From contig JAPKXI010000028.1 of the NCBI GenBank assembly GCA_026338065.1, positions 1-47,543 on the forward strand: a DNA stretch of 47,543 nucleotides, given 5' to 3'. The position numbers were made by a program, and so were the translations under genes. This stretch comes from Lachnospiraceae bacterium (GTDB taxonomy: Bacteria > Bacillota > Clostridia > Lachnospirales > Lachnospiraceae). The notes under the pieces are model-generated. The model was not told the DNA's origin, searched no databases, and saw only the letters and a list, made by a program, of their open reading frames with translations. This document shows, piece by piece, positions 10,219-44,175 of this stretch. The stretch's first letter is position 1. The number at the start of each line of letters is the position of its first letter.

Positions 10219-10337
10219 CTTTTTTCGTCCTTTCTGGCATTTTCCAGTTTAACAGGTTATTGCTTTTATTCTAGCACAAGAATCCTAAGATTGCAAAGAA
10301 AAGATATAGGAATCCTAGTCGAAAAGTGGGGGGAGGA

Positions 10338-10575
10338 CGCCAGAGTATGGCATTGCAGTACTGTTTCGCTCTACAGAAAGTAAGAAGCTCTAAGACTTCT
10401 GAATTTAGATGCATCCAACCGGACGGACCGGGGTGCAATTCGCCCGTGCTGCGGGCTAAACACACCCCTTTTTTTGCCATTCAAGAATGGCAAAAAATCC
10501 TAATGAATCGACAGAAGTCTAAAAGCTTCTAACTTTCCTCCGAAGTCACAGTACTGCAATGCCATACTCTGGCTG
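10338..10575 (-). repeat. Family A structured repeat, copy A2 (inverted relative to A1)
   Basis: Outer stem gccagagtatggcattgcagtactg/cagtactgcaatgccatactctggc is perfectly paired but differs in sequence from A1. The inner core and the tttttttgccattcaagaatggcaaaaaa hairpin are conserved. Confidence 0.85.
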
Positions 10576-10668
10576 TCTTTTTCCACAATATAGGTATTCT
10601 TTTTTCTCTTTTTTTGTTTTTTTAATCTATCAAGGAAGTAGCGGAGCGAATTCCGAATTTCCTTTGAC

Positions 10669-14422: not shown

Positions 14423-14574
14423 ACTCCTAAACTACATCCTTCCTAATTCAAAATCCCATCTCTATCCACACACCAAAAAATATCATACCACTCCTCATTC
14501 CACCAAACCACCCCAAAATTCCCTCCCATTCCCACCTGAATAAAAAATAAAAATCAAATCTATCGCCAGAAAGA

Positions 14575-14834
14575 ACCAGCTGGAGTTTGGAAGCCCTTTC
14601 TCTATGCAGTGACTTCGGAGAAAAGTTAGAAAGTCTTATGCCTCTGTCGATCTCCTAGGATTTTTGCCATCTTCTGATGGCAAAAAAGGGGTGTGTTTAG
14701 CCCGCTGCACGGGCGAATTGCACCCCGGTCCGTCCGGTTGGATATATTTTCATTCAGAGGCATAAGACTTTCTTACTTTTCGGAGAGCGGAACAGCATAG
14801 AGAAAGGGCTTCCAAACTCCAGCGTCCTCTACAC
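14575..14834 (+). repeat. Family A structured repeat, copy A3
   Basis: Outer stem ccagctggagtttggaagccctttctctatgcag/cagcatagagaaagggcttccaaactccagcg. Second stem ttagaaagtcttatgcctctg/cagaggcataagactttcttac. Both carry compensatory changes relative to A1, and the core is identical to A1. Confidence 0.85.
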
Positions 14835-14970
14835 CATCCCCCAGCTTTTCCATCCTAATATCCACACATCATCCCCCAACTTTCCCATCTCAATATCCAC
14901 ACCATCCCCCCAACTTTCCCATCTCAGTATCCACACCATTCCCATTCCCCTCAACCTTCACTTTTTTCTA

Positions 14971-24430: not shown

Positions 24431-24624
24431 TGTGGTTCTCCTTACCCATAGTGTTACAAACCTGCTTCGATTAATCGAACATATATACGATTGTAGCAGA
24501 TTTTCTATTATCTGACAAGACCTTAATTCGAATCGATCGAATAGTAATCTGATTGTTTATAGTGAGCCAGAAAATTATTTATAGTGAGCCGAATGATTGT
24601 TTATGGCGATCCGGACGATTGCAT

Positions 24625-24748
24625 CTGCTGGTGAATCCCTGCTGGGGCCGTTTGCACTAAGGCTTCCTCGCAGCGGACACATAAGGCACGAAAGTACCGT
24701 GCCTAAGTGCCGGCGGGAAGCAATACCCCTGCAGGGATTCACCAGCAG
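24625..24748 (+). repeat. Family B repeat, copy B1: conserved ~93-nt core flanked by copy-specific perfect inverted arms
   Basis: Arms ctgctggtgaatccctgc / gcagggattcaccagcag. Core tggggccgtttgcactaaggcttcctcgcagcggacacataaggcacgaaagtaccgtgcctaagtgccggcgggaagcaataccc. Confidence 0.85.
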
Positions 24749-24790
24749 CTACAATCTGTCTATCTCAACGGAATGTTTGATAGAATCGCT

Positions 24791-25265: not shown

Positions 25266-25366
25266 AGGAAATTCGCAATCCGCTTCACTACTCGCTCATA
25301 ACCTCATAGCCACTATCGCAACTTTTCAATGAAAGTCTAAAGTCTGCACTTCCTTGATGAGGTTAA
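25266..25366 (+). repeat. Family C repeat, copy C2 (leader module plus a shortened hairpin module)
   Basis: ggaaattcgcaatccgcttcactactcgctcataacctcatagccactatcgca...cttccttgatgaggttaaa, with the internal hairpins deleted relative to C1. Confidence 0.7.
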
Positions 25367-25383
25367 AATAAGGTACAAAACAG

Positions 25384-25521
25384 CTCGCCCTAAGGGATCT
25401 TTCTTTGCTGGGGCCGTTTGCACTAAGGCTTCCTCGCAGCGGACACATAAGGCACGAAAAGACCGTGCCTAAGTGCCGGCGGGAAGCAATACCCCTGCAA
25501 AGAAAGATCCCTTAGGGCGAG
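25384..25521 (+). repeat. Family B repeat, copy B2
   Basis: Arms ctcgccctaagggatctttctttgc / gcaaagaaagatcccttagggcgag, a perfect 25-bp inverted repeat. Core identical to B3 and B4. Confidence 0.85.
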
Positions 25522-25629
25522 CGTCAGGACTACCCAAAACAATTCTAAATCAAACAATCCCAAACCACTCCAAACAATCGAAACTCTACAATAAATGAAA
25601 AACTTAGTATAAAATATATTATACCTATT

Positions 25630-28041: not shown

Positions 28042-28252
28042 CCTTCTTACCTCTCACTCTATTCATAAAATTTACAAAAAATTCCCGTCCTGCTTTCCTC
28101 TCTTCTCCTAATATATCACGAAATCTGCATTTTCACAACCTGATTTTACATTTTCACAATGCAAATTTCCTTTTTCAACCTAACAATACCCATTCCCAAG
28201 CAGCTCCATCTCGCCTTTTATTCTTTTTATCAATAAAAATACAGGAAAAAAC

Positions 28253-28501
28253 AGCCAGAGTTGGGAAGCGATTCTTTTTTGCTGTGACTTCGGAGAAAAG
28301 TTAGAACGTCTTATGCCTCTGTCGATCCACTAGGATTTTTTGCCATTTCCAAATGGCAAAAAAAGGCACGTGTTTAGCCTCCTGCAGAGGCGAATTGCGT
28401 GCCGATCCGTCCGGTTAGATGCACCTAAACTCAGAGGCATTAGCCGTTCTTACTTTTCGGAGAGCGGAACAGCAAAAAAGAATCGCTTCCAAACTCTAGC
28501 G
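28253..28501 (+). repeat. Family A structured repeat, copy A4
   Basis: Outer stem gccagagttgggaagcgattcttttttgctg/cagcaaaaaagaatcgcttccaaactctagcg. Core helices ggcacg/cgtgcc and cctc/gagg replace ggggtg/cacccc and cccg/cggg of the other copies, each change fully compensated. Confidence 0.85.
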
Positions 28502-28539
28502 TCCCCCTCCCCCCATTTCCCTACAAAACCCCCATTTCC

Positions 28540-30054
28540 CTACAAAACCCCCGTATCACTATCCACCTCAAACCAAAATTCCACCCCATTTTCCAAATTT
28601 CGAACCCCATATTCTTTATGATGAGCTTCCATAATTGCCTTTACAATCGACAGCCCAATCCCGCTCCCTCCATACTCTCTTGTCCGTGCCTTATCCACCT
28701 TATAAAACTTAATCCAAACCTTCCCCAACTCCTCCTCTGGAATCGGATTCCCTGTATTAAAAACAGACACCCTTACCGTATGCTCATTTTTTGTCAAAGA
28801 AACAACGATCTGCTTCTCTCCGCCTGCATAGTGAATCGCATTACTAATATAATTCGTAACCACTTCCTCTAACTGATACTCATCTCCCCATACAAAAACC
28901 GGCTCCCGCTGCTCGAATAAAACCGTAATCTTGTCCTGCCTGCATAAAATTTCAACCGACTGAATCACACCCAAAATCAATGCCGTCAAATCAAACCGCT
29001 CCATCGTAATCTGTTCCTGTCCAAATTCTAACTGATTTAAAGTCAGCAGTTTCTTTACCATTTTATTCATTTTATCTGCTTCATCTATAATTACTTCACA
29101 GTAAAACTCCCTGCTTTCTGCATCCTCATTAATCCCTTCTGCAAGCCCCTCCGCATATCCCTGAATCAATGCAATCGGCGTTTTTAATTCATGAGATACA
29201 TTCGATAAAAATTCCTTCCTTATCTCCTCCATCTGAATCTTCTGCTCAATATCCTTTTGCAGTTCATTATTTGCCGACTTTAATTCAGAAATCGTATGCT
29301 CTAACTTTTTGGAAAGTTCATTCATACTCTGCCCTAACACACCGATTTCATCTTTATCGTGCCGCTCATACTTTGCCTCAAAATCTAAATTAGACATTTT
29401 CCCCGATAATTCTGCCAATTCCAACAAAGGTCTAGTCAAACGCCTAGTAATCGTAATCGAAATCATAATAGCTAAAATACTGACAATTCCTCCCACATAG
29501 GCAACAAAACGATTGGAAATCTCTACACTTTCCTTTATACTTTCCACCGGAATACGAAGCAGCATATATTCTCTGGTATTAGGCTCCACCCCGAATAATT
29601 CCAAAAAATTAGTCGAATAGCGACTATCTTTATTTCGAAAAATACTATAATCCTCTTCCCTTTTTAAAGTCACCGCACTATTCTCAATTCCAAATAAATA
29701 AGGCATTACCAAATCCTGCAGGGTCTGTACATTGTGCACATTATAATAGACTGGTTTTAACATTCCTGTATTGGCATCCAAAATAATAAATGTAATATTG
29801 GATTTTTGGCACAACCCCTCTAACTCCAATGCTACCTCATCCGCCTTTTTATTACTCTGTACCAATTCACACATACTCACATAAGCATTTTCCAATTTTG
29901 TCTGTTTACTAATTAAATAATAATCTTCTAAAAATCGATTATTAATCAATAAAAGCAAAAAAACTGTACCAAAAGTCGCAAATAACATTAATGCTATTAT
30001 TTTGGTTCGAATAGAATATTGTATTTTCCCTACTAAACCTGCTATTTTACTCAT
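28540..30054 (-). CDS. Sensor histidine kinase (2 TM, HAMP, HisKA, HATPase_c)
   Basis: H-box SNVSHELKTPIALIQGYAEGL, with N, G1 and G2 boxes in the C-terminal third; 504 aa. Confidence 0.9.
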   Translation of the reverse strand: MSKIAGLVGKIQYSIRTKIIALMLFATFGTVFLLLLINNRFLEDYYLISKQTKLENAYVSMCELVQSNKKADEVALELEGLCQKSNITFIILDANTGMLKPVYYNVHNVQTLQDLVMPYLFGIENSAVTLKREEDYSIFRNKDSRYSTNFLELFGVEPNTREYMLLRIPVESIKESVEISNRFVAYVGGIVSILAIMISITITRRLTRPLLELAELSGKMSNLDFEAKYERHDKDEIGVLGQSMNELSKKLEHTISELKSANNELQKDIEQKIQMEEIRKEFLSNVSHELKTPIALIQGYAEGLAEGINEDAESREFYCEVIIDEADKMNKMVKKLLTLNQLEFGQEQITMERFDLTALILGVIQSVEILCRQDKITVLFEQREPVFVWGDEYQLEEVVTNYISNAIHYAGGEKQIVVSLTKNEHTVRVSVFNTGNPIPEEELGKVWIKFYKVDKARTREYGGSGIGLSIVKAIMEAHHKEYGVRNLENGVEFWFEVDSDTGVL

Positions 30055-31505: not shown

Positions 31506-31640
31506 CCTCATAATCCTATGCTGCTATCGCTGCTTGTCAGATGGAACTTGCCCCCAACTGACACAAGGAAGTCCCCCAACCCACCGCTTTCGCCTTCACG
31601 GCTTAGAAGCAGAGGACCTCCTTGATAGGTTAAAAAACAC
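31506..31640 (+). repeat. Family C repeat, copy C3
   Basis: taatcctatgctgctatcgctgcttgtcag...ctgacacaaggaagtccccc...ggcttagaagcagaggacctccttgataggttaaaaaa. Confidence 0.7.
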
Positions 31641-32680: not shown

Positions 32681-33043
32681 TGGAGCTGAGGGGAATCGAA
32701 CCCCTGTCCGAAGACTCCTCCATCAAAGCATCTCCCACCACAGTCCCTGTTTTATGCATAGCCTTTTTCTATACGGTTCCCTCTATCGGACACCCATGGA
32801 CAGGTTTCCGGCTTTAGTAGCTTCATTTTTCTTTTATACCCTCAAAGCTTTGGATACAAAGTTCCTTACCTCCTTGATGCCGGATTCTTAAGCAGTAAGC
32901 TACCTAAGAGCGACAGCTGCTATTAAGCAGCGAACGCGTAATCTTCGTTTGCGTTTATATTTAATTTTCGGTTTACTAATGCGGTTCCGACCCGCAGGTG
33001 GCTTCTCCAACTTCATAATCCCCGTCGAAACCAGTACAACCCC
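32681..33043 (-). ncRNA. ssrA: tmRNA (ssrA)
   Basis: 5' GGGGTTGTACTGGTTTCGACGGGGATTATGAAG and 3' GGGGTTCGATTCCCCTCAGCTCCA form the tRNA-like domain, with G3.U as the alanine identity pair. The internal tag reading frame is GCAAACGAAGATTACGCGTTCGCTGCTTAA (ANEDYAFAA*). Confidence 0.9.
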
Positions 33044-33090
33044 GAATTTTTCAATTCTTTCAGTTGAATGGTTCTTACAGAACAATAGTT

Positions 33091-33119
33091 ATTATACTGA
33101 TAAAATAATCATTCGTCAA
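33091..33119 (-). promoter_or_regulatory. Sigma-A promoter for tmRNA
   Basis: Minus-strand TTGACG, 17 nt, TATAAT, about 45 nt upstream of the mature tmRNA 5' end. Confidence 0.6.
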
Positions 33120-33298
33120 GTATTTTTTTTTATTTTTTAAAAAAAGTCCGATAAAACAAAAAACCTCTTTCCTGCTTTAACTGCCCTTTTCCTCCCAATA
33201 CTTATGTACGCAAAAAAAGACTGCTGCAAAACAATAAATAGTATTATGATTGCCCCTATATTCTGTAAAATTACTATATTTTGCAGCAGCCCCTTTTT

Positions 33299-33607
33299 CT
33301 ATTTTTCCAATTTTTTCATCTCTAAAATAATTCGATCCAAATCTTCTAACGACTGCTTAATAGAACTATTTACCGCTGCTGAACTGCTTGCCAATTCCCC
33401 GACTTTTGTAGCAACAATCGCAAATCCTTTTCCGGCATCTCCGGCTCGTGCTGCTTCTATTGAAGCATTCAATGCTAAAATTTTTTGCTGACTTTCAATT
33501 TTATCCAAATTTTTTGTCTTATCTAAAATTTCCCTAATACAATCGTCTGCCCGATCAATACAAGCCTTTAACTCCTCAAATTGAACTCCTGTTTCTTTCG
33601 TCTCCAT
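33299..33607 (-). CDS. Mini-MCP: 102-aa protein consisting only of the methyl-accepting chemotaxis protein signalling hairpin tip
   Basis: [31 protein letters not shown] is the highly conserved MCP tip (the CheW/CheA-binding region). There is no TM, HAMP or sensor domain. Confidence 0.6.
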
Positions 33608-33648
33608 AGAATTATTCCTCGCCCTCTCTTCTCTTATTTTCTTTATCC

Positions 33649-34566
33649 TTATTTTAAAAACCCATTTACAATCTGTGCCTCAGCCTCACTCTCTGTTAGT
33701 CCAAGCGTCATTAACTTAATGATCTGTTCTCCAGCAATCTTTCCAATCGCCGCCTCATGAATCAGACTTGCCTCCAGATGATTTGCTGTAATTTCAGGAA
33801 TTGCACTAATATTGGCACGATCCATAATAATAGCATCACATTCCGTATGTCCGTTACACTTATTATTCCCATTAATCTTTGAAAAAAAGATCTGTCTAGA
33901 ATCATCTTTTGCCACTGCCCTAGAAATCACATTCGTTCCAGAACCTTCCCCATCCAAATCCACCTCAAAGGAAGTCTCTGCTACTTGTTTTCCATGTGTC
34001 ATCAGCTTCTCTTTAATCACCAAAGTTGCATAGTCAGCCAGTTTTGCCTTAGTAGAACGCTTAGTAGAATCCACTCCCCGAATCTGAACGGTCTCCATCT
34101 CCATATAACTGCCTTCTCCTAATTCCACAACCGTCTGCGGATTCATAATCCGTTCTCCTGTTCCTTCCCCGCTTCCATAATGCTTTTCCACATATCGCAC
34201 TTTTGCATTTTTCCCAACAAAAAAACTATGAATTCCATCATGCCGAGTTTCCTTTGCTCCACCATTATGAATTCCGCACCCTGCAACAATTGTAATATCG
34301 CAGTCATCTCCTATGTAAAAATCATTATACACCATCTCTGTCAGTCCGCTCTGACTAAGCAGCACCGGAATATGCACACTCTCCTTTTTTGTTCCCGGCT
34401 TAATTCGAATATCAATCCCCTGTTTATCCTCTTTTGTTACAATATCAATATTGGCGGTCGTATTCCTCTCCGCACTGACACCATTTGCACGAATATTGTA
34501 TGCTCCCTGCGGCACTTCATGAAGTCCTGCTACCTGTTCAAGCAAGGTCTTTTGAATCTCATCCAT
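33649..34566 (-). CDS. sufB: SufB/SufD-family Fe-S cluster assembly protein
   Basis: 305-aa beta-helix-type SufBD protein immediately downstream of sufC. Confidence 0.8.
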
Positions 34567-34568
34567 CT

Positions 34569-35303
34569 CTACACCTCCCTTTTCTGATAATACCTGCAGG
34601 AACTTGTACCAGATAGCAATTCCGGCAAAATCTCATCCTTCTTTCCAATTGCCTGAATGGATCCATTTGCAATCACCACAATCTCATCCGCAATATTCAA
34701 AATCCGCTCCTGATGAGAAATAATCATAATCGAACGTTTCTGTTCCTGATAAAGTCTTTCAAATACATCGATCAAATTACTAAAACTCCACAAATCAATC
34801 CCCGCTTCCGGCTCATCAAACACAGAGAGTTTCGATGCCCGTGCCATCACAGTCGCTATCTCAATCCGCTTTAATTCCCCGCCGGAAAGACTGCCGTCCA
34901 CTTCCCGATTAATATAATCCCTAGCACAAAGCCCCACCTCAGACAAATAATTACAAGCTCCGGCAACCGTCAGCTTCTTTTCTTTTCCTGCCGCCAGCAT
35001 AATCAGATCCTTTACTGTAACCCCCTTAAACCGCACCGGCTGCTGAAAAGCAAAACTAATTCCTGCCTTTGCCCGTTCTGTAATGGTCATCTCTGTAATA
35101 TCCACCCCATCAAATAAAATTCTTCCCATGGTTGGCTTTTCAATTCCGACAATTAACTTAGCAAGCGTTGATTTTCCTCCGCCATTCGGTCCGGTTACAG
35201 CAATAAACTTTGTATTATCCACAGTTAAACTAATATTCCGTAAAATCTCTTTTTTCTGATTTTCTCCTTCCACTTCAAAGGAAACATTCTGTAATTCCAG
35301 CAT
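34569..35303 (-). CDS. sufC: Fe-S cluster assembly ATPase SufC
   Basis: Walker A GPNGGGKSTL, ABC signature LSGGELKR and Walker B LSVFDE; 244 aa. Confidence 0.9.
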   Translation of the reverse strand: MLELQNVSFEVEGENQKKEILRNISLTVDNTKFIAVTGPNGGGKSTLAKLIVGIEKPTMGRILFDGVDITEMTITERAKAGISFAFQQPVRFKGVTVKDLIMLAAGKEKKLTVAGACNYLSEVGLCARDYINREVDGSLSGGELKRIEIATVMARASKLSVFDEPEAGIDLWSFSNLIDVFERLYQEQKRSIMIISHQERILNIADEIVVIANGSIQAIGKKDEILPELLSGTSSCRYYQKREV

Positions 35304-35427
35304 TTTTCTTTATCCCTTTATGCCTTTCTTCCCGATCATTCCACTCGGTAAATAATCCTATCATTTCCAAAATTTTCTATTCCATTTCCAAATGATATAC
35401 TTATTATAGTTTTTCCTAGCAAAAAAG

Positions 35428-35649
35428 TCAACTATTCTCCTGAGATGCTTTTTCCTCTTGTGCTTTCTTTTTTCGATTCCGTGTCCCAAGAATTCCGCCG
35501 ATACGTCCGGTTTCCCGTGCAGAAAGCGTTCCCCATCCCCCTTTCAGCACTTTATCTAACACCCCAATTTCCTCTGCAATTTCTAATTTCATCTCATCCT
35601 CTGGTGTTAAATTCTCTAAATCAATTTCTTTCTTTTTCTTAGTCGGCAT
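35428..35649 (-). CDS. Alpha/beta-type small acid-soluble spore protein
   Basis: KLEIAEEIGV...GGWGTLSARETGRIGGILG is the SASP alpha/beta signature. Start placed at MPTKKKK, which has GGAGGAG 6 nt upstream. Confidence 0.8.
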   Translation of the reverse strand: MPTKKKKEIDLENLTPEDEMKLEIAEEIGVLDKVLKGGWGTLSARETGRIGGILGTRNRKKKAQEEKASQENS

Positions 35650-35795
35650 TACTCTCTCCTCCAATACTCTAATTTTACCAAGAGTATTTCCCTAATTTTC
35701 AAGGCTTATTCAATTTCTAAAGAAAAGTTATCAGAAAAAAGGAAAACCACTTCAGCAATTATAAACCAGATATTGGTATTGTAGAACCGGACGCA

Positions 35796-35929
35796 GGTAG
35801 CATAGAGAGATTCTTTGCTGGGGCCGTTTGCACTAAGGCTTCCTCGCAGCGGACACATAAGGCACGAAAAGACCGTGCCTAAGTGCCGGCGGGAAGCAAT
35901 ACCCCTGCAAAGAATCTCTCTATGCTACC
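35796..35929 (+). repeat. Family B repeat, copy B3
   Basis: Arms ggtagcatagagagattctttgc / gcaaagaatctctctatgctacc, with an identical core. Confidence 0.85.
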
Positions 35930-35937
35930 CGCTGTTT

Positions 35938-36148
35938 CGTTCCCCCTAGAAATAATGCCTCATAAACATTTTTATTCTACCTGTTGGTTTATTCCTCCTG
36001 GAAACAATACCTCACAAACATTTTTACTCTGCCTATTAACTTGTTCCTCCTGGAAATGATACTTCACAAAAATATTTTATTCGGTCTGCTGGTTTATTCC
36101 TCCTAAAAACAACGCCCCGTAAAAATTCTCTACTCCGACTGTTGGAAT
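35938..36148 (+). repeat. Degenerate tandem repeat, about 52 bp x 4
   Basis: Units of the form tcctcctggaaacaatacctcacaaacatttttactctgcctattaacttgt, with about 70% identity between units. Located upstream of the SASP gene. Confidence 0.6.
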
Positions 36149-36162
36149 TCAAAAGAAATTTG

Positions 36163-36279
36163 TAATCCTATGCTGCTATCGCAGCTTGTCAAATAGGGCT
36201 TGTACCCCACCTGCCCCCAACCCACCGCTTTCGCCTTGGCGGCTTAGAAGCGGGGGACTTCCTTGATGAGGTTAAACTA
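36163..36279 (+). repeat. Family C repeat, copy C4 (5' arm degraded)
   Basis: taatcctatgctgctatcgcagcttgtcaaatagggcttgta...ccaccgctttcgccttggcggcttagaagcgggggacttccttgatgaggttaaa. Confidence 0.7.
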
Positions 36280-36345
36280 TCTAAAATCACACAAAAACGG
36301 TTTTAATCAACCAAAATACTGCGACTGTTCCGGTTGGAATATACA

Positions 36346-36485
36346 GCTGACACCACTGGATGAATCTCTGCAGGGGTATTGCTTCCCGCCGGCACTTAGG
36401 CACGGTCTTTTCGTGCCTTATGTGTCCGCTGCGAGGAAGCCTTAGTGCAAACGGCCCCAGCAGAGATTCATCCAGTGGTGTCAGC
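36346..36485 (-). repeat. Family B repeat, copy B4 (inverted relative to B3)
   Basis: Arms gctgacaccactggatgaatctctgc / gcagagattcatccagtggtgtcagc, a perfect 26-bp inverted repeat, with an identical core. Confidence 0.85.
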
Positions 36486-36560
36486 GTCCCCCCAACAGAA
36501 AATCACCCAATGATGTCAGCGTCCCCCCAACATATATTCGTTTAAATTCAAATCATTCGC

Positions 36561-43702: not shown

Positions 43703-43832
43703 GAAATCCCTCCTTTGTTTATTCCAGTCAGCTATAAAAATTCTTATTTTCTATTATAACATACCATCTAAAAAGATACCACCTTTTCAGACAGCAGAAG
43801 AAACTCATATCCAAAAAAATTCCCCGGAAATA

Positions 43833-44068
43833 ACGCCAGAGTACTTGAAAGGGAACTGTTCCGCTCTCCGAAAAGCAGAAGCTCTAAGACTTCTGAATCT
43901 AGGCATATCCAACCGGACGGATCGGGGTGCAATTCGCCCGTACAGCGGGCTAAACACACCCCTTTTTTTGCCATTCGAGAATGGCAAAAAATCCTAGTGG
44001 ATTGACAGAAGTCTAAGAGCTTCTAACTTTCCTCCGAAGTCACAGTTCCCTTTCAAGTACTCTGGCTG
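43833..44068 (-). repeat. Family A structured repeat, copy A5 (inverted)
   Basis: Outer stem gccagagtacttgaaagggaactg/cagttccctttcaagtactctggc. Conserved core and the ttgccattcgagaatggcaa hairpin. Confidence 0.85.
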
Positions 44069-44175
44069 TATTGTCTCACAATCTACTTTTTTTCTCTTTG
44101 CTCCATTATATTCTTATTCTTTTTTGTTAAATTTCCTTCTTTCTTTTTTTATTAAAAATAATTTTAGAATTTTTG

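Follow-up and report, generated by a model that had tools for sequence, protein, structure and literature searches.

This analysis concerns family B, a set of dispersed repeats in a 47,543-nt stretch of DNA (contig JAPKXI010000028.1 of Lachnospiraceae bacterium assembly GCA_026338065.1; hereafter the window), in which nearly identical cores are embraced by self-complementary arms that differ from copy to copy. Family B is probably a species-restricted intergenic hairpin repeat, in which a constraint on base pairing, combined with concerted evolution of the core, explains the contrast between the variable arms and the uniform centre. A preliminary description of these repeats reasoned that, under ordinary divergence, core and arms should have mutated to the same extent, and proposed either insertion of the core at the apex of pre-existing palindromes, or regeneration of one arm from the other during propagation. 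The premise of this argument fails if selection, and exchange between copies, are taken into account.

The four copies in the window lie where they were originally placed, being recovered by a 37-nt core probe at up to three mismatches (four matches, compared with 0.00 in shuffled sequences), and each is predicted to form a long hairpin (folding z-scores of -9.7 to -11.6). The cores of B2, B3 and B4 are identical, and that of B1 differs, as first reported, at two bases, which both lie in the apical loop. A sensitive search brought the count of family B copies to 33 in approximately 170 kb, comprising the window and loci from a metagenome-assembled genome (MAG), which is a lower bound for the species. 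Aligning all copies with their flanks defined an element of approximately 155 nt, consisting in order of GGAC, a 26-bp outer helix, a T.T position, an 88-nt core, the second strand of the helix, and TGTnTnTTCC, which often runs on as TGTATATTCCAACCRGAAC. The copies in the window are as follows:

24613..24766, plus strand: B1, whole element, with GGAC at 24613-24616 and the T-rich frame TGTCTATCTC at 24757-24766.
24617-24642 and 24731-24756, plus strand: B1 outer helix, with two mismatches.
24643..24730, plus strand: B1 core, 88 nt, with helix P1 (GGGG/CCCC) and an asymmetric internal loop CCGTTTGCAC...
Within 24643..24730, plus strand: upper part of the B1 core, with the invariant 17-bp middle helix, the apical helix P5 (GGCACG/CGTGCC) and the apical loop.
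25373..25526, minus strand as judged by the outer frame (TGAC...TGTTTTGTAC on the minus strand): B2, whole element.
25383-25408 and 25497-25522: B2 outer helix, perfect; core at 25409-25496, inverted relative to the frame in the window.
35789..35942, plus strand: B3, whole element; outer helix 35793-35818 and 35907-35932, with one mismatch; core 35819-35906.
36336..36489, minus strand: B4, whole element; outer helix 36346-36371 and 36460-36485, perfect; core 36372-36459.

Hence the core spans 88 nt between the arms (TGGGG...CCCCT), rather than the 93 nt initially assigned to it. The perfect arms of 18-26 bp in the preliminary description correspond to the perfect part of the helix, rather than its extent, which is 26 bp in every copy and includes two mismatches further out in B1 and one in B3. 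The junction motif GA(A/T)TCYYTGC is confirmed as common to the copies; the innermost 7-10 nt of the arm are semi-conserved as GA(A/T)TCTYTGC, and the outer 18 positions differ between copies at a mean of 8.9 sites, in line with the 50-60% identity between arms estimated earlier. Despite these hypervariable outer positions, a consensus is recognisable across all family B arms. The GGAC 5' of the hairpin (positions -4 to -1) has an information content of 1.3-2.0 bits per position. The orientation of the core relative to this frame is uniform in 32 of the 33 copies, B2 in the window having its core reversed. A gathering-threshold Rfam scan of the whole window returned the tmRNA and two tRNAs only, with no family for the B elements, and relaxing the scan to E values up to 10 across B1-B2 gave only chance-level matches. 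The core showed no sign of coding potential, its open frames extending into the variable arms without a consistent start or stop. Two further observations concern the arms. Stem position 8, the central N of the arm GANTC motif, forms a T.T mismatch in nine of the 26 copies, and this site toggles between T-A, T.T and A-T among strains at both B3 (35811/35914) and B4 (36364/36467). Directly beside B4, positions 36490-36524 hold an extra copy, at 83% identity, of the B4 right arm and frame (36455-36489), a degenerate solo arm that slippage, or deletion of a copy, may have produced.

The family has a narrow distribution. The window is bacterial chromosomal DNA; in addition to the tmRNA and both tRNAs, its housekeeping genes include ruvAB, gerA, suf genes, addAB and polA. 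Among 185,579 species-representative genomes, only the uncultured Lachnospiraceae MAG MGBC128194 contained an exact 24-mer from the core; many of its 24 matches, which are spread over 19 contigs, lie at contig ends. One locus of this MAG (L017) is 99.2% identical to window positions 32707-36411, the stretch holding the B3 orthologue, and therefore the window and MGBC128194 represent the same species, an uncultured mouse-gut member of the Lachnospiraceae. No family B match was found in plasmids or phages, viral contigs contained no match to two core patterns, and JGI metagenomes contained no relative. Searching a protein database with the translated core returned two spurious open reading frames (ORFs) only, one of which was traced to a contig in a sample of the same species. 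Relatives at 84-89% RuvA identity do not have B1 and B2, their intergenic spacers at these sites being 161-178 nt rather than 360 nt, and 283 nt rather than 572 nt, respectively, and approximately 33 kb of the relatives' loci contained no element related to family B. With copies found in one species and none in the loci of the relatives, the expansion of the family is placed on the branch to this species. Upstream of ruvA, the relatives conserve only a stretch at 24455-24520, which contains a promoter-like site (TTGTCA-17-TACAAT) and a LexA-box-like sequence, CGTATATATGTTCG.

The variation in the arms has the signature of selection on pairing. Across the family B alignment, 97.1% of cells were paired, compared with 83.6% after shuffling, and double-sided changes affected 212-218 cells, compared with 66 in shuffles. 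Covariation was found at 24 of the 30 pairs of the outer helix and four of the seven in the apical helix P5, and at none of the 17 in the middle helix (P2-P4). The changes in P5 form a stepwise compensated series, from GGCACG/CGTGCC through GGTGCT/AGCACC to GATGCT/AGCATC. Lone changes in the core fall at unpaired positions, and those at paired positions are compensated, as for P1 at locus L002. Loci L001 and L015 are diverged versions of one site, with flanks approximately 85% identical; their 140-nt hairpins differ at only three positions, two of which constitute a single compensated pair. The hairpin having remained nearly constant despite this flank divergence, the arms are therefore evolving more slowly than neutral DNA. 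Orthologous arms are likewise constant across 5-9 other strains, save for single one-sided changes (B1, for instance, is unchanged in eight other assemblies except for one new arm mismatch at L047), and approximately 20 uncompensated mismatches remain in the outer helix among family B copies. Hence the arms change slowly under a pairing constraint, with one-sided intermediates visible, and the stability of orthologous arms, together with their slower change than the flanks, rules out hypermutation of the arms in place. Additionally, G.U cells in the outer helix are distributed unequally, with 14 on the strand reading ACAG, hairpin, CGTCC and one on the opposite strand (two-sided binomial p ~0.001, some cells being non-independent). 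The same polarity was reached in strains through two different types of transition, for which selection acting on a single folded strand is a better explanation than mutational bias. In the favoured account, the arms are the element's own 26-bp outer helix, descended from a common ancestral arm, in which only the pairing is constrained, such that compensated substitutions accumulate via the one-sided intermediates observed.

These data also bear on the proposal that each arm is rebuilt from the other whenever the element propagates, through hairpin-primed synthesis on a single-stranded intermediate, with diversification occurring at transposition. Such a process would account for most stems being perfectly Watson-Crick paired over 23-26 bp, and for the arms of near relatives differing almost wholly by compensated changes; it could also draw on the interaction of the arms as DNA that is evident at B2, described below. 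However, uncompensated mismatches persist in strains and paralogs, with new one-sided changes arising between strains, and the compensated change separating L001 and L015 arose in place, as their flanks have diverged by 15%. Compensated swaps also occur in P1 and P5, within the core, and therefore the pairing constraint is general, rather than special to the arms. Nor does this mechanism give a reason for synthesis errors to spare the core. Arm rebuilding at each propagation is therefore improbable. The element of the original suggestion that stands is the interaction of the arms at the DNA level, given the B2 inversion and the precedent for template switching; the element that does not is regeneration as a step of every propagation, given the stability and slow change of orthologous arms. 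This DNA-level interaction is hence best regarded as a real but rare contributing process.

Exchange between copies bears on the uniformity of the core. The distances between copies in their arms and in their cores are uncorrelated (Mantel r = -0.17, p = 0.97), and three of the four B' copies, in which P5 is variant, have their nearest relative by arm sequence, at 2-3 of 18 differences, among copies with the common B-type core. Many pairs of core sites, involving sites 10, 34, 51 and the P5 block, fail the four-gamete test, and therefore the cores are mosaic. This pattern fits short-tract gene conversion among dispersed copies. Hence the copies exchange core segments, probably by homologous recombination or gene conversion, and such conversion would halt at the arms, these being too diverged, leaving approximately 100 nt of shared sequence to be homogenised. 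Within the core, the invariance of the middle helix and its internal loops, situated between helices that covary, suggests a sequence-specific constraint on the 17-bp helix and these loops, perhaps through an additional sequence-specific partner. Two other observations on exchange were set aside. A family B copy at L048 741-894 (sample ERZ13641601) combines the left arm and flank of the L016 element with the right arm and flank of the L008 element, the switch lying within the core; it was rejected as evidence that dispersed copies cross over, being indistinguishable from mis-assembly at 3.6x coverage. The matching of apical-loop alleles within pairs (3 of 10, compared with ~0.2 expected), considered as an indication of local conversion, was not significant and was dropped.

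An alternative account of the uncoupled histories of arms and core is that the 88-nt core is an independent mobile unit, inserting site-specifically, in either orientation, at the apex of older framed hairpins. The occurrence of the B2 core in both orientations would be explained by such mobility, as would the sharing of a frame and the inner-arm motif GAWTCTYTGC between family B and a second family, A, with an unrelated core. However, a census of hairpins with stems of at least 15 bp and loops of at most 320 nt, across the window and the MAG loci, found that nearly all were A or B elements, the exceptions being one short, unrelated hairpin (stem of 16 bp, loop of 9 nt) and helices formed between adjacent B copies in inverted orientation. 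None of the long hairpins in the ~170 kb was a framed stem lacking a core, despite this sequence containing 33 copies of B along with several of A. A consensus, a fixed length of 26 bp and conserved outer flanks are common to the arms; in combination with the absence of a core-less stem, this places the variable helix within the element, and the suggested insertion into pre-existing palindromes is not supported. Similarly, the four-gamete incompatibilities place recombination break-points inside the core, which identifies cores as mosaics rather than inserted units. Furthermore, a perfect palindrome would be unable to impose the same core orientation on 32 of 33 copies, and both B2 alleles have identical arms and flanks, within a locus 98.7% identical overall, which fits inversion in place. 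A mobile core is therefore very improbable.

The B2 locus demonstrates that the arms can interact as DNA. At the corresponding locus L039, the B2 arms and flanks are the same as in the window, while the 88-nt core is exactly reverse-complemented. The core was flipped in four assemblies (the window, L020/L044 at 184x, L021 and L045), and in the canonical orientation in three (L039, L046 at 76x and L047 at 47x). The inverted repeat at B2 is 31 nt, which is judged to be shorter than the final k-mer, typically 55, of metaSPAdes-style assemblies, the type suggested by the contig names, and therefore ambiguity in the assembly graph is an unlikely source of the inversion. An exact reverse complement between identical arms means that the B2 arms interact at the DNA level, and this product would be expected from either recombination, or replication template switching, between the arms, which as inverted repeats span 26-31 bp. 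Template switching is known to create perfect stems, multi-base compensated changes and loop inversions (PMC8794818), and the same arm-arm process may copy one arm from the other, helping to keep the stems perfect.

A more radical interpretation is that family B comprises multi-copy programmed invertible switches, at which a site-specific recombinase acts at the junction of the inner arm and core, flipping the core to toggle a strand-specific function. The exact inversion polymorphism in several high-coverage assemblies, the conservation of the inner-arm motif and junction in all copies, and the strand asymmetry of the element would all be anticipated if this were so. As in invertons, a segment bounded by inverted repeats occurs in both orientations within the species. 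However, this applies to B2 alone; the remaining 32 B copies were never found flipped, including B1, B3 and B4 (each compared across 5-9 strains), nor was A2 in four, and a single event is able to explain the distribution at B2. There is no promoter-like site inside the core, and the window encodes no recombinase gene. Hence programmed inversion is highly unlikely.

Family A shows that this design extends beyond family B. Its members are hairpins of approximately 250 nt with a branched, conserved top, of which there are five in the window, at these approximate coordinates:

4422..4679, minus strand: A1, just past the stop of the gene ending at 4738.
14569..14827, minus strand: A2, just past the stop of the peptidase M32 gene; unchanged in four other strains.
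28244..28504, minus strand: A3, just past the histidine-kinase stop codon at 28540.
10335..10583, plus strand: A4.
43831..44076, plus strand: A5.

The frame, GGAC...TGT, is the same as that of family B, and encloses a conserved outer stem (GCCAGAGT/ACTCTGGC in A1) and a hypervariable complementary mid-stem, with compensated changes also present in the core. The inner arms are alike, for example GCGATTCTTTTTTGC followed by TGT in A, and GAGATTCTTTGC followed by TGG in B. A1-A3 follow stop codons in the same sense orientation as the B copies (GGAC, hairpin, T-rich tail). Family A had only four chance matches in JGI metagenomes, in unrelated GC-rich DNA. The shared frame and arm design are therefore properties of a repeat superfamily in this genome, in which family B would be one of at least two families with the layout of GGAC, a long hairpin and TGTnTnTTCC. 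As a side observation, the 3' flank of family B, TGTATATTCCAACCGGAAC (e.g. 36327-36345), resembles an internal segment of family A, GTGTATCCAACCGGACGGAAC (e.g. 4576-4596), which hints that the repeat families share modules. A further idea is that A and B are substrates of one dedicated machinery, a site-specific recombinase or an HUH-type single-strand enzyme, which would recognise the common frame and the GAWTCTYTGC motif (often with a T.T mismatch), and would both spread the hairpins and flip their cores. This is distinctly improbable; if true, there would be dozens of small invertible terminator or insulator modules across the genome, at which a strand-specific core function could be switched.

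The spread of family B would have occurred on the lineage to this species, without target-site duplication. No consistent direct repeat, short or long, was present at any family B boundary tested, and the similarity of flanks within copies (4.56) was close to that between copies (4.53) and in shuffled sequences (4.55). Candidate unoccupied targets (GGAC^TGTnTnTT) were discarded as uninformative, since the matches lay inside coding regions. The preliminary description suggested looking for a linked Y1/HUH transposase or TnpB; no gene for Y1/HUH (RAYT), TnpA or TnpB was present in the 47.5-kb window. A 182-aa ORF at 46011-46559, 10 kb from the nearest B copy, has a weak match to the C-terminal part of an IstB/IS21-type ATPase (E ~1e-7), and may be a mobile-element remnant or a DnaC-like protein.

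Nevertheless, elements similar to REP/BIME or IS200/IS605 could be mobilised by an HUH (Y1) enzyme encoded elsewhere in the genome, acting on a folded single strand, which is an explanation of the spread that is compatible with the hairpin repeat being shaped by pairing constraint and core exchange. Consistent with such an enzyme are the combination of an invariant 4-nt 5' flank, GGAC, with the lack of target-site duplication, the strand-asymmetric mismatches and recurrent T.T stem mismatch, the frequent inverted pairs, as in BIMEs and REPINs, and the species-specific expansion. The similarity to REPINs is an analogy only, as the tetranucleotide is GGAC, not GTAG. However, beyond the lack of a candidate gene in the window, the stems differ between copies, unlike the REP sequences recognised by these enzymes; at ~155 nt, the element is 4-5 times the length of a REP, which is a conserved palindrome of 20-40 nt; and it forms one long hairpin, rather than the separate left-end and right-end subterminal hairpins of IS200/IS605. 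Mobilisation by this route is therefore unlikely.

Comparison with other known systems supports the view of family B as a variant on a common theme. Stem-loop sequence families are common in bacteria (PMC2267715). Family B resembles REP, BIME and REPIN sequences, which are mobilised by RAYTs in proteobacteria, in being intergenic palindromic hairpins, often just past stop codons and in inverted pairs, with a short conserved 5' flanking motif and no target duplication. It differs in having a large conserved internal domain and copy-variable stems, where those of REPs are conserved, and in its Firmicute host. REP and BIME sequences form species-specific families that are able to act on transcription termination and mRNA ends. 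Similarly, the Correia/CREE, ERIC, BOX, RUP and SPRITE repeats, and the stem-loop families catalogued in PMC2267715, are interspersed intergenic sequences, 100-250 nt in length, with long stem-loop folds; such hairpin-forming, MITE-like repeats are in many cases species-specific, and some act as terminators or processing sites. Classical MITEs, by contrast, have conserved terminal inverted repeats and target duplications, whereas the outer helix of family B is hypervariable, and no duplication was found. Integron attC sites share the conservation of structure over sequence, the strand asymmetry and the unpaired stem bases, but have the opposite layout, with conserved R boxes at the stem base and a variable centre, rather than a conserved centre and variable stem; furthermore, the neighbours of family B are housekeeping genes, with no cassette array or integrase. 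Unlike invertons, which are phase-variable in gut bacteria, inversion affects one locus of 33, with no promoter inside, no linked invertase and copy-specific inverted repeats. The hairpins generated by template switching (Monttinen and Loytynoja 2022, PMC8794818) have the same perfect stems, multi-base compensated changes and loop inversions as family B. Those cases are in rRNA and microRNA genes, mostly with 4-nt loops, while B2 is an 88-nt example that varies between strains; the mechanism at B2 is deduced from one inversion, and homologous recombination between the arms gives the same product.

The genomic context of family B suggests a role for the hairpins. Twelve of the 14 copies within 110 nt past a stop codon are arranged as GGAC, hairpin and T-rich tail in the direction of the gene (two-sided binomial p ~0.013). 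B2 is 108 nt past the gerA stop codon, with its frame in the terminator orientation, and B4 is 76 nt past the addA stop codon, reading GGAC, hairpin, TGTATATTCC. No ordinary terminator lies between the stop codon and the element in five transcription units ending in an A or B element, whereas transcription units without these elements do have one, and in a relative that does not have B2, gerA is succeeded by a conventional hairpin and T6. Ten convergent pairs, 116-654 nt apart, have their T-rich tails facing inward, and the second copy of these pairs is upstream of the next promoter; B3 and B4 constitute such a pair, with B3 situated upstream of a SASP gene and its promoter-like site. The pairs were rejected as composite transposons, as the spacers within them are unrelated. 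Based on position and orientation within the sequence, a terminator or insulator hairpin with a T-rich tail is therefore likely the best-supported role.

Several observations weigh against these interpretations. Firstly, no base-precise empty site was recovered for B1 or B2, the intergenic DNA of the relatives not aligning. Secondly, P5 is able to vary, yet is identical in 22 of 26 copies while nearly every arm differs, and selection alone is therefore insufficient to explain the contrast between arms and core. Thirdly, gene conversion is deduced from few informative sites, and recurrent mutation could explain part of the pattern. Fourthly, inversion was found at one locus only, and a single event may suffice for its distribution. 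Fifthly, with regard to termination, the conserved TGTnTnTT tail is modest, with 5-6 T in 8 positions; the stem base on the terminator-oriented strand often has A.C mismatches; a simple terminator scan is unable to score hairpins this long; and the polarity of the G.U cells (14 versus 1) points to the strand opposite the terminator orientation.

Other features of the window include a third repeat family, C, at 1636-1789, 25267-25370, 31511-31635 and 36163-36276, which ends in ACTTCCTTGATGAGGTTAAA and is often beside B copies. Some of its copies contain a hairpin, CAAGGAAGTCCCCC.../...GGGGGACTTCCTTG (e.g. 1723-1775), and two have a promoter-like TTGACA-16-TAGGAT on the minus strand, at 36192-36165 and 31540-31513. 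Tandem repeats lie by B3 (35918-36127, four copies of 52-53 nt) and by A2 (14838-14940, three copies of 34-35 nt); the distance between B3 and B4 varies by strain, at 476, 640 or 770 nt, and the copy number of the 34-35-nt array is variable. The gene at 1902-4340 encodes an 812-aa protein that matches the major vault protein in its shoulder and repeat domains, an unusual finding for a bacterium.

Family B is a variant of the interspersed stem-loop repeats of bacteria, of which the invertible core, the three zones of conservation and the frame shared with family A are the features worth following up. Within one short repeat, three evolutionary regimes can be distinguished, with a helix that covaries, a middle that never changes, and a core kept uniform through exchange among copies, while the strain-polymorphic inversion of an 88-nt loop shows the arms interacting as DNA. 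Hence an ordinary explanation is sufficient for perfect, copy-specific arms surrounding an identical centre, and no new copying mechanism is required; if the minority interpretation of the inversion were true, this would instead be a new kind of multi-copy invertible element. Together, A and B represent an abundant, previously undescribed superfamily of repeats in an uncultured gut member of the Lachnospiraceae, occurring approximately once per 5 kb in the window, at whose copies short-read assemblies break, and which probably serve as terminators of housekeeping genes.

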